Source of the DNA: a virus
Lineage: Duplodnaviria > Heunggongvirae > Uroviricota > Caudoviricetes
Length of the DNA: 33,205 bases
IMG/VR virus record: IMGVR_UViG_2617270988_000009
Reading direction: 5' to 3' (one strand)
Shown here in pieces: positions 30,211 through 32,091 of the stretch. The stretch's first letter is position 1. Each line of letters opens with the position of its first letter. Position numbers and translations under genes: made by a program. A model generated the notes under the pieces. That model was not told where the DNA came from and ran no database searches. It saw only the letters and a list, made by a program, of their open reading frames with translations.

Positions 30211-32091
30211 TTATGCGGCTGCTCCAGCTTTGTTTGCTTTAACTTCCACCGTATCAATAAGTACAGGGTAGGTTTCTGCACTACCTGTAATATCCGTAAT
30301 GACAAACCTGTTGAGTCCATTAGCAGTATTGGCCCATTTCACCAGGTCAAACGCCTGTCCATCCACACCATCAAGCACCGGAGTAACATTAATGCTGTTA
30401 CTGCCCTTAAATTTAAATGCAAGCGTATGCCAGTCATGGTCGAATGCGCCAAACGTGCCAAGTTCTTTTTGTTGATTAACTGTATGATGGTATGCAACAT
30501 TAATACTGGCTTTATCTGTCTGGACAAAGAAAGAACTCAGATGGCCTTCACCACCCTCACCCGGCCATTCCGCTATTCGCCAGTACAAACCAAAGGCATA
30601 CTTGTTTCTGGTTGTCTCAAGATTGACGTTTTCGGGGATTTTAAACCGGACAGCAATTTCCCCGCCTTTTTCCAGTAAAAGTTTTGCCTTGTCTGCAGCA
30701 ATATCACAGTACATTGACCAGGATTTCGCGCTGTTATTTTTCTCAATTCGCAGAGCTTTATTGCCGCTGTCATCAACCAGTGTGCGTCTGCCATACATCC
30801 CGTCCCAGCCATAAGGTTTCAGCTGATTGTCTGTAGCTTTTTTGGCATCGTAAAAAATTACAGACTCTGAGGTGGTAACCGGCCTGTCTGGAACAACCAC
30901 CCCGGCAGTACCATTAACAAACGCAGAAGACTTACCCGCGCAGCTCAGAATCGCCGTTGCCAGACGGTCGGAAATAATCCCACGGCGAGCCCATGAACTG
31001 AAATGGCTCGCCCTGTCCTGTGACGTCCAGGGGGCTGAGCTGTCACGCCATTTTGAACCGTAATAACCGATACCCGGAATGTCCGGGTCTTCTTCCGGTT
31101 TGTTCGTCGGCACATTCACCCCGTTCTCATCGGTCATGAACGGTACGAAATGGATATTCTTTTCCGTTTTATTTTTATAGCTGCCGTACACCGTCTGGTA
31201 CGTGGATTCGTTCTTCTGCTTCCAGAAATACGTCGTGTCCCCGCATATCCAGGGAACACCGCCAGCAGAGCCACCGACGCACTGGCCTGCCATATCCGCC
31301 AGGTCTGCACGGAATTTATCAACCAGCGCACCAAACTGTGCGGCATGATTTGCCGGCGTACCGCCAAAATCAAATTCCCCCTGCATCCACACCACGGCAA
31401 ACAGCACATTTTTCGGGTTCTTCTCCAGTGCCGCTTTTGTTCGACCGATAAGGTCCTTATACAGCGGCTTGTCCACACCCCAGCGGGTTGAATTCTCCGA
31501 GGCACCACTCGCGTCACTGTATGTGCCATCAGCTCCGGTGGTGAACGCTGAACCACCACGACAGCACGGAACCAGCAGAATGCCCGCATTCGCCGGTATA
31601 AACGGCAGCAGTTTTTTGGCGATATGCAGCCCCTGCCCCACGGTTCCGTACTGCCCCTTTGACAGGTCCGCTTTCGGATGGTTAAGACGGCTCATGTCCT
31701 GCACATCATGCAGACAATGGTCCGCCGGAATGATGTCGTTATATTTGCATGCTGCACCGCCCGGTGTCACCGTACTGCGACGCGCCAGTTGCTTAATACG
31801 CGGGTCCGGACGGTCATATGTCCCCGGCAGCGGAAGGCCTTCACCATACGACATGCCGTTTGACTGCCCTGCCAGAACCACAACAAAGTAATACTCCGGG
31901 TCGCTGGTGGCGCTGATTACTGCACCTTCTGCTGCAATCGCCTGCATCAGAGTATAAGGGGTTATGGCCACCGGACTACCAAACGGCTGCCAGCCCTCTT
32001 TCAGTTTATGTGTCAGCTTTTCCGCAAGATCTGACGGCGACGCCGCCCTGACAACATCATAGTGTTTAAATGCCATGGTTCTTTCCACCAT
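30211..32091 (-). CDS. prophage sialate O-acetylesterase (NanS-p-like; DUF1737 N-terminus + SASA/SGNH esterase domain); alternative start at 32076 (MAFKHYD...)
   Basis: N-terminus MAFKHYDVVRAASPSDLAEKLTHKLKEGWQPFG (DUF1737-like) followed by the esterase motif VVLAGQSNGMSYG; position between the tRNA cluster and the holin. Confidence 0.8.
   Translation of the reverse strand: MVERTMAFKHYDVVRAASPSDLAEKLTHKLKEGWQPFGSPVAITPYTLMQAIAAEGAVISATSDPEYYFVVVLAGQSNGMSYGEGLPLPGTYDRPDPRIKQLARRSTVTPGGAACKYNDIIPADHCLHDVQDMSRLNHPKADLSKGQYGTVGQGLHIAKKLLPFIPANAGILLVPCCRGGSAFTTGADGTYSDASGASENSTRWGVDKPLYKDLIGRTKAALEKNPKNVLFAVVWMQGEFDFGGTPANHAAQFGALVDKFRADLADMAGQCVGGSAGGVPWICGDTTYFWKQKNESTYQTVYGSYKNKTEKNIHFVPFMTDENGVNVPTNKPEEDPDIPGIGYYGSKWRDSSAPWTSQDRASHFSSWARRGIISDRLATAILSCAGKSSAFVNGTAGVVVPDRPVTTSESVIFYDAKKATDNQLKPYGWDGMYGRRTLVDDSGNKALRIEKNNSAKSWSMYCDIAADKAKLLLEKGGEIAVRFKIPENVNLETTRNKYAFGLYWRIAEWPGEGGEGHLSSFFVQTDKASINVAYHHTVNQQKELGTFGAFDHDWHTLAFKFKGSNSINVTPVLDGVDGQAFDLVKWANTANGLNRFVITDITGSAETYPVLIDTVEVKANKAGAAA

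Follow-up and report, generated by a model that had tools for sequence, protein, structure and literature searches.

A mosaic nanS-p allele in an Escherichia coli prophage and the association of its DUF1737 domain with the phage head module

Does the sialate esterase gene carried by prophages of Escherichia coli merely feed the lysogen, or does its product also travel on the phage particle? The gene, nanS-p, is one of the most frequent accessory genes in E. coli prophages and is usually cited as a phage-borne metabolic conversion that lets enterohaemorrhagic and enteropathogenic E. coli (EHEC/EPEC) feed on mucin sialic acids. The question is raised here by the copy found in a viral DNA of 33,205 nt (IMG/VR record IMGVR_UViG_2617270988_000009, referred to at its full length as the window), which is contig JNRU01000028.1 of the E. 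coli assembly GCA_000704845.1. We assign this gene, with a probability of roughly 0.85, to the alleles of nanS-p, which is the prophage version of NanS, the E. coli sialate O-acetylesterase. It is a known, RefSeq-annotated member of its family and at the same time a new mosaic allele (DUF1737-B, SASA domain, C-terminal type 2) that carries a linker deletion seldom seen. The window copy adds nothing new to NanS-p enzymology; what its analysis mainly contributes is comparative evidence in favour of virion display through the N-terminal domain.

Identity and domain architecture of the protein

The open reading frame (ORF) list of the window holds an uninterrupted ORF on the minus strand at 30211..32091, with 626 codons counted from the first ATG. 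A second ATG at nt 32076, 15 nt downstream of the first, opens the frame with MAFKHY and yields 621 residues. Translation likely starts at this second ATG, because GGTGGAAAGAACC precedes it and because the homologues, all of which begin with MAFKHY, MTFKHY or MSIKHY, and the RefSeq protein begin there. The in-frame ATG at 32091, which extends the ORF to 626 residues, is probably unused as a start, and a search for a Shine-Dalgarno-like sequence before it has found none. The ORF given in the initial annotation has been retained, and only its length of 626 residues has been revised. The coding sequence (30211..32076, minus strand, 621 residues plus stop) rests on the ORF list, the homologue starts, the checked translation and the identity to RefSeq WP_032263680.1, 'SASA family carbohydrate esterase [Escherichia coli]', which the 621-residue product matches letter for letter; its coordinates and the catalytic codons have been confirmed by re-translation. 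An NCBIfam search of the protein has assigned no family, and PHROGs places it in phrog_143, 'unknown function'.

Three Pfam domains have been detected, every one above its gathering cut-off. In the numbering of the 626-residue ORF these are DUF1737 (PF08410) at residues 8-55 (E 1.9e-15, 56.9 bits against a cut-off of 24), SASA at residues 71-266 (E 6e-11) and DUF6645 (PF20350) at residues 473-584 (E 1.5e-28, 99.7 bits). The earlier two-domain description of the protein was right about DUF1737 and the SASA esterase and had missed the third domain, the lectin-like DUF6645. In a PDB search, residues 61-383 match NanS/YjhS (3PT5) with E 6e-116 and 179 of 318 aligned positions identical (56%), and residues 416-620 match the NanS-p C-terminal domain 6YP6 with E 4e-42; the homology to both structures is far beyond chance. 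On the 621-residue protein, the DUF1737 domain covers residues 1-52 (31921..32076, minus strand like all segments of the gene; allele B, …WQPFGSPVAITPYTLMQAIAAEG…, in an allele classification described below), the NanS-type SGNH/SASA esterase domain residues 56-378 (30943..31911, delimited by the 3PT5 match and the SGNH blocks), a second inter-domain linker residues 379-410 (30847..30942; CAGKSSAFVNGTAGVVVPDRPVTTSESVIFYD, without an SSP motif) and the C-terminal lectin-like jelly-roll domain of type 2 residues 411-621 (30214..30846, delimited by Pfam and 6YP6). GC content is 56% in the esterase domain versus 45% in the C-terminal domain, and no signal-peptide-like hydrophobic stretch has been found in the first 52 residues.

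The Ser-His catalytic pair and the oxyanion blocks of NanS are preserved. In 3PT5 the SGNH blocks are 17-GQSNA-21, 120-RGGSAF-125, 178-MQGEFD-183 and R-x-SHFS-303, and the catalytic His has as its partner an oxygen of the main chain instead of the side chain of an Asp (PMC10792757). All four blocks are intact in the window protein and match those of 3PT5, namely GQSNG at 70-74, RGGSAF at 173-178, MQGEFD at 231-236 and RASHFS at 355-360 in the 621-residue numbering; Pascal et al. give two variants of this last block for NanS-p, RASH and RSSH, of which the window protein has the former (PMC10462455). The GQSNG motif named in the initial annotation is located at residues 75-79 of the 626-residue ORF. 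The nucleophile is Ser72 (Ser77 in the 626-residue ORF, Ser19 of NanS; codon 31861..31863, minus strand) and the base His358 (His363 in the 626-residue ORF, His301 of NanS; codon 31003..31005, minus strand). Loss of Ser, His and Asp had been proposed as evidence that would speak against the assignment; Ser and His are both present, and the Asp part of this test was mis-specified, as the family uses a Ser-His pair and NanS has no catalytic Asp. Since the main-chain oxygen takes the role of Asp in NanS, the test should read Ser/His.

The three-domain architecture, the late-operon position and the 96-98% identity of the catalytic domain to active NanS-p enzymes support the NanS-p identification, and the comparison with characterised enzymes that had been asked of the sequence gives 56% identity to NanS (3PT5) for the same domain. 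The protein is not chromosomal NanS (YjhS), as it has three domains and 621 residues and lies inside a prophage. NanS 3PT5 (337 residues) shares the catalytic fold and the four SGNH blocks but aligns to residues 61-383 alone, and the match of chromosomal homologues from other genomes is confined to residues 54-377, without DUF1737 and without the lectin-like domain. NanS is an exported member of the nan regulon; in the window protein DUF1737 stands where chromosomal NanS has its own N-terminus.

In relation to the CHARACTERISED enzymes, the nanS-p gene of the window is a mosaic. Its DUF1737 domain is 96% identical to that of BP-4795 and 63% identical to those of 933W and of O104:H4, and its esterase domain is close to all three (96% to 933W L0105, 98% to BP-4795 YjhS, 98% to O104:H4 C227-11 WP_000874468.1). 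The second linker (100%) and the C-terminal domain (210 of 211 residues) are identical or nearly so to WP_000874468.1, and the C-terminal domain is only 42% identical to those of 933W and BP-4795; megablast places the break at the same position as the domain-wise identities. Close to the window protein over the esterase, the second linker and the C-terminal domain is the enzyme of O104:H4 C227-11 (WP_000874468.1, 636 residues; WP_000874467.1 of FORC_069 is of identical type), whose gene likewise lies downstream of Q without stx and is followed by DUF1378, DUF826, holin and lysozyme genes. This O104:H4 type differs in carrying DUF1737 allele A and a 15-residue linker, where the window has allele B and a deleted linker, and these prophages, as seen in FORC_069, have 933W-type head genes, unlike the window. 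The BP-4795 protein (YjhS/NanS-p, CAD88844.1, 645 residues, from an Stx1 (Shiga toxin 1) phage) shares the DUF1737 allele, and its phage shares the head module of the window (TerS, TerL, protease-capsid fusion, portal, 461-residue ORF), but the protein keeps the full linker (DVTTPVAVTGNEGKAVAV) and a 933W-type C-terminal domain, and its gene lies downstream of stx1, at a position where the window has iraM and STnc100. 933W L0105 (z1466) and phi24B gp84 (vb_24B_21) have the same three-domain architecture, and nanS-p of 933W has the same place in the late operon, behind the ileZ-argN-argO tRNAs; the window protein lacks SISSP and PSSPSG, two motifs at which processing of 933W/phi24B NanS-p has been proposed. 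Of the four aromatic residues proposed for the glycan site of phi24B, three stay aromatic in the window C-terminal domain, which conserves Y510 and Y515 and has Phe in place of Y540; the fourth, F611, aligns to Asn.

A 45-nt in-frame deletion sets the window allele apart. Its junction lies between nt 31924 and 31923, after Gly51 (31918..31929, minus strand, from the DNA alignment), and removes 15 residues of the linker between DUF1737 and the esterase, so that the window reads AEG-AVISAT versus AEG-DVTTPVLVKPSDGEG-TVISAT in other B- and C-allele proteins. In linker-bearing alleles the DNA alignment shows a direct repeat, AGAAGGT, on both sides of the 45-nt segment, the signature of a repeat-mediated in-frame deletion. 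The deletion lies outside every folded domain. With a 91-nt probe across the junction and at least 80% of the probe covered as the definition of a match, no spanning match has been found in 5,426 complete E. coli genomes. The linker-less allele does occur in five IMG/VR contigs, at full length in L006 and L007 and truncated to 462 residues in L020-L022. The window gene differs from L006 and L007 at 3-5 nucleotides, all synonymous, a pattern that points to purifying selection on nanS-p. A minimal linker is likewise found in an independent NanS-p lineage of 616-618 residues (L003 and two Escherichia loci, L090 and L091), which shows that a long linker is not essential. A search in the linkers of the window protein for SSP-type motifs, which have been proposed as autoprocessing sites in phi24B gp84, has found none, the first linker being deleted (AEG|AVISAT) and the second lacking SSP.

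DUF1737 alleles and head modules

A structural precedent for the N-terminal domain has been described in a 2026 preprint on phage phi24B. Cryo-electron microscopy (cryo-EM) and proteomics have identified its NanS-p, gp84, as an abundant virion protein that is full-length in fresh particles; DUF1737 hexamers sit as plugs in the pore at the centre of three-fold hexons in the T=9 capsid, are bound only on the flat three-fold hexons of this shell, and are anchored through a loop carrying Tyr42 (the Tyr 'tooth'), and the enzyme is proposed to be freed later by cleavage near SISSP (bioRxiv 10.64898/2026.04.10.717836). We have surveyed 80 IMG/VR loci, which are the 80 best matches to the window protein, together with reference loci. 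DUF1737 allele classes have been defined from 86 loci, domain segments have been split at fixed offsets from GQSN, and association with head type has been measured as adjusted mutual information (AMI) with 2000 permutations. The loci are related to one another and not phylogenetically independent, and head and tail modules are co-inherited, which makes 'head' inseparable from 'virion type' in the values given here.

Three DUF1737 alleles (A, B and C) have been found, which differ only at residues ~32-49, with residues 1-31 nearly invariant. The variable residues coincide with the loop that has been called the capsid anchor (bioRxiv 10.64898/2026.04.10.717836). In the window protein this loop is three residues shorter than in phi24B and differs in sequence (ITPYTLM versus STAGYGAEF); a Tyr, Y41, is present as a putative equivalent of Y42. 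On the side of the virion, Pfam distinguishes four head modules: a 933W type with a PF13252 capsid protein, the window type with a fusion of S78 protease and PF05065, a lambda type with gpA terminase, lambda-family portal and S49 protease, and a type X with a fusion of ClpP and PF25209. In the 38 loci for which the head has been typed, allele A occurs with 933W-type heads ten times and with the window type once, allele B with the window type nine times, the lambda type twelve times and type X once, and allele C with type X in all five cases.

The DUF1737 allele tracks the head-gene module, and the esterase domain, the C-terminal domain and Q do not. The AMI of the N-terminal allele with head type is 0.66 in the 38 loci (0 of 2000 permutations) and 0.64 in 33 dereplicated loci, where the esterase domain has reached 0.02 and about 0, and the C-terminal domain 0.21 and 0.16, respectively. 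In the 31 loci with a typed Q the value for the N-terminal allele is 0.71, compared with 0.15 for the C-terminal domain and 0.20 for the upstream Q type; in the 23 of these without 933W heads the values are 0.55, 0.06 and 0.03. One and the same Q-stx1 upstream region is followed by allele A with a 933W-type head in L002 and L013 and by allele B with a window-type head in L005 and L023. The segment for the C-terminal domain separates that for the N-terminal domain from the head genes, with Q on the opposite side. Consequently, plain linkage does not explain the tracking by the N-terminal domain, which favours functional coupling. A scan of genome contigs has yielded two three-domain loci, of which only L091 has head genes; it agrees with the counts above, two loci being too few for a replication.

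That the N-terminal domain follows the head module provides independent support for the capsid-display claim, and the association suggests that display extends to siphovirus-type heads. If this is true, the biology of NanS-p is less a matter of 'lysogen nutrition' and more one of 'phage behaviour in mucus', and the linker-less allele becomes a natural test case for the proposed proteolytic release. The label 'metabolic cargo' in the initial annotation, conventional as it is, is for these reasons probably incomplete, given the phi24B protein on the virion and the co-variation of the DUF1737 allele with the head module. In L016 (IMGVR_UViG_2778260993_000014), a Q-stx1-nanS-p block with allele A has been seen joined to a window-type head (S78-PF05065).

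Possible virion display, cargo role or decay

Several observations weigh against extending the phi24B picture to the window phage. Phi24B is a podovirus that has a T=9 shell and a capsid protein of PF13252, whereas the window prophage is of the lambdoid siphovirus type and does not carry a partner capsid of the phi24B/GP4 kind (T=9, PF13252); its major capsid protein (Peptidase_S78 plus PF05065) gives no BLASTP match (E<=1e-5) to 933W L0116 (PF13252). The site bound in phi24B, the flat three-fold hexon, may be lacking in other shells. Allele B, with an identical anchor loop, accompanies two head modules (window and lambda type), the same 621-residue protein stands beside a lambda-type terminase on another contig of the assembly and in L007, and L016 and L063 break the allele-head rule. 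As to late expression, a matter apart from docking, Q and the late promoter pR' lie beyond the end of the window (and of the contig), and late regulation is read from synteny; moreover, two terminator-like hairpins and a convergent iraM gene separate the tRNAs from nanS-p, and its expression therefore depends on an antitermination that is invisible in the window. A strict model of one allele for one capsid has been rejected, since allele B goes with two head modules, L016 and L063 depart from the rule, and an identical protein occurs with both heads. We give about even odds to the docking of the enzyme on capsid hexons by DUF1737 in the window phage.

The strongest competitor of virion display is a pure lysogenic-conversion enzyme, a soluble public good from lysing cells whose DUF1737 has no capsid role and could serve folding, oligomerisation or retention. 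This is the published view for the NanS-p enzymes of EDL933 and O104:H4, which supported growth on Neu5,9Ac2, and it sits easily with a window head module that differs from that of phi24B, with one identical protein serving prophages of two head modules, and with an allele B anchor loop that is the same in both head types. It has to accommodate, however, that fresh phi24B virions hold the full-length protein via DUF1737 (bioRxiv 10.64898/2026.04.10.717836), that the N-terminal allele tracks the head far better than Q or the C-terminal domain do, which simple linkage does not predict, and that a non-induced lysogen, given a protein without signal peptide, gains nothing directly. We regard this explanation as plausible at somewhat less than an even chance. 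The phi24B virion association (bioRxiv 10.64898/2026.04.10.717836) is also in keeping with a virion-borne esterase that has a bacterial substrate, that is O-antigen or capsule (e.g., O-acetylated polysialic acid), and acts for adsorption or against superinfection in the manner of tailspike esterases; such a role has been raised as an open question in a review of Stx phages (PMC8065619), and the window protein has a weak match to PHROG 25867, 'tail protein' (E 4e-4, residues 164-265). It is quite unlikely nevertheless, as the phi24B protein resides not on the tail but on the capsid, where it is badly placed to process a receptor, the catalytic domain shares 56% identity with an enzyme dedicated to sialate de-esterification, and homologues act on Neu5,9Ac2 and mucin glycans (PMC8065619).

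Highly improbable is a decaying remnant, with a protein crippled by the loss of its linker in a prophage that is itself defective. The deletion allele is indeed rare, being absent from the 5,426 complete genomes, and its truncated 462-residue forms exist; yet the deletion is in frame and spares the folded domains, an independent lineage lives with a minimal linker, all catalytic blocks are intact, the differences to L006 and L007 are synonymous only, and the terminase, capsid, portal and lysis ORFs match in length those of the functional phage BP-4795. Joining the separate elements into one picture, DUF1737 would be a head-matched capsid anchor across lambdoid coliphages, NanS-p would primarily be a virion-displayed glycan editor for sialylated mucus rather than a benefit to the metabolism of the lysogen, and the linker-less allele would be permanently tethered and copied into three co-resident prophages with two head types. 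As a whole, this conjunction is rather doubtful.

Under the nanS-p assignment, the following course of events may be envisaged. The gene would be transcribed from a Q-dependent late promoter through the tRNA/terminator leader, mainly after induction, as is suggested by synteny and by published quantitative PCR (qPCR), in which mitomycin C raises nanS-p mRNA by 1-2.4 logs in other strains (PMC10462455). The protein, as its sequence shows, is made in the cytoplasm without a signal peptide, and its export would therefore await lysis of the cell by the adjacent holin and lysozyme. NanS-p of 933W, 7-10 paralogues of EDL933 and five paralogues of O104:H4 are reported to be active Neu5,9Ac2 esterases, which also remove O-acetyl groups from mucin glycans and allow growth on Neu5,9Ac2 (PMC8065619, PMC10462455). 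Because its catalytic domain is so close to these active enzymes, the product of the window gene is very probably active on Neu5,9Ac2 and mucin sialoglycans as well. Outside the cell, Ser72 and His358 would strip O-acetyl groups, those at position 9 and others, from sialic acids that are free or bound to mucin, and the C-terminal domain probably directs the enzyme to glycans. The de-O-acetylated sialic acids would then become usable by sialidases and the Nan catabolic pathway of surviving sibling cells. More tentatively, DUF1737 may dock at hexon centres as in phi24B, and part of the enzyme may travel on the virion; and as the linker whose cleavage has been proposed in phi24B is deleted here, the enzyme might, speculatively, stay tethered.

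Prophage surroundings and distribution

The placement of nanS-p in the late region, as initially annotated, agrees with its position between a tRNA cluster and holin/lysozyme genes; annotated phages and genomes syntenic to the window show Q followed by the same gene series. Read in the direction of late transcription (minus strand), the late-operon leader (32932..33205; ARAGORN, Rfam and terminator scan) begins with a partial tRNA cut by the window end (33141-33205), followed by tRNA-Arg(tcg) at 33054-33130, tRNA-Arg(tct) at 32964-33040 and a terminator-like hairpin at 32949-32932. The order of tRNAs and terminator is that of the ileZ-argN-argO cluster of 933W, which follows Q and pR'. Between the tRNA cluster and iraM/nanS-p sits the small RNA STnc100 (RF02076; 32698-32887, minus strand, full length, 132 bits by Rfam), with a strong hairpin at its end (32728-32707). 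The iraM-like gene (32316-32672, plus strand, convergent with late transcription; NF007393, 161.7 bits versus a cut-off of 121) encodes a product of the anti-adaptor family, an RssB inhibitor and RpoS stabiliser. Its segment, within 32092-32697, has 33% GC and occupies the stx position of Stx phages, and a promoter-like site lies near the gene at 32229-32257 (plus strand); the prophage carries no stx. An 872-bp iraM segment occurs in 1,428 of the 5,426 complete E. coli genomes at a coverage of at least 80%.

Downstream, nanS-p is adjoined by co-oriented genes (28393..30071; Pfam and called genes, minus strand) for DUF1378 (29889-30071), DUF826 (29618-29863), a P21-type holin (29326-29541, 0.6 kb downstream), DUF1327/YdfR (28977-29321) and lysozyme (28393-28926). 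An ANT-family antirepressor gene (27424-28119, minus strand) lies between lysozyme and Rz; an ANT antirepressor inside the lysis cassette has also been seen in 933W and BP-4795. After Rz come TerS, TerL, the Peptidase_S78-capsid fusion, the portal and lambda-like tail genes. The head module (17803-22686, minus strand) consists of the S78 protease-capsid fusion (641 residues), a 73-residue ORF, the portal (454 residues) and a 461-residue ORF, an unusual order that recurs in ORF56-59 of BP-4795. The 461-residue ORF is Ala-rich and has sub-threshold Pfam matches only, CBM_5_12 among them. A related genome annotates the portal and this ORF as a single 'frameshifted portal'; a broken portal, suspected from that annotation, has been rejected, as BP-4795 has the same 454-residue portal and 461-residue ORF.

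At the tail-fibre end of the prophage lies espK (9719-11080, plus strand; NF011913, 1054.7 bits), an effector gene of the type III secretion system (T3SS), and the host is likely positive for the locus of enterocyte effacement (LEE). The host genes past espK are potB, potA and pepT; potB (8493-9356, plus strand) adjoins espK and is intact with no potC after it, and the prophage appears, from this gene order, to be inserted at the potB/potC junction. Adjoining pepT, a second mobile element at 1472-4499 (minus strand), perhaps a satellite or P4-like island, has a tyrosine integrase at 3249-4499 and a 388-residue ORF (1472-2638, minus strand) whose C-terminus is like that of the cell-division inhibitor Icd.

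A count of paralogues, which had been suggested for this genome, has yielded at least three nucleotide-identical nanS-p copies in GCA_000704845.1. They are found on contigs JNRU01000028 (the window), 037 (L087) and 049 (L089), within an identical block of ~4.1 kb from iraM to DUF1327. Downstream of this block, one contig has the window head module and another a lambda-type Nu1/gpA terminase, and the third ends before the head genes. Contigs 028 and 049 end at the same point in the tRNA cluster, which suggests a repeat-induced assembly break. The three identical copies may stem from a recent gene conversion between prophages of the same host, or else from a collapsed repeat that the assembler has copied. 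Beyond this assembly, nanS-p matches occur in 2,373 of the 5,426 complete E. coli genomes, at up to 14 places per genome. Two further matches come from outside E. coli: an 888-bp Xanthomonas pisi contig (L107) encodes a DUF1737 N-terminus identical to the 933W-type allele over 80 translated residues, and a contig of a Veillonella metagenome-assembled genome (L105) a 39-residue DUF1737 fragment that is 90% identical to the window protein. Both are most likely contamination and not true hosts.

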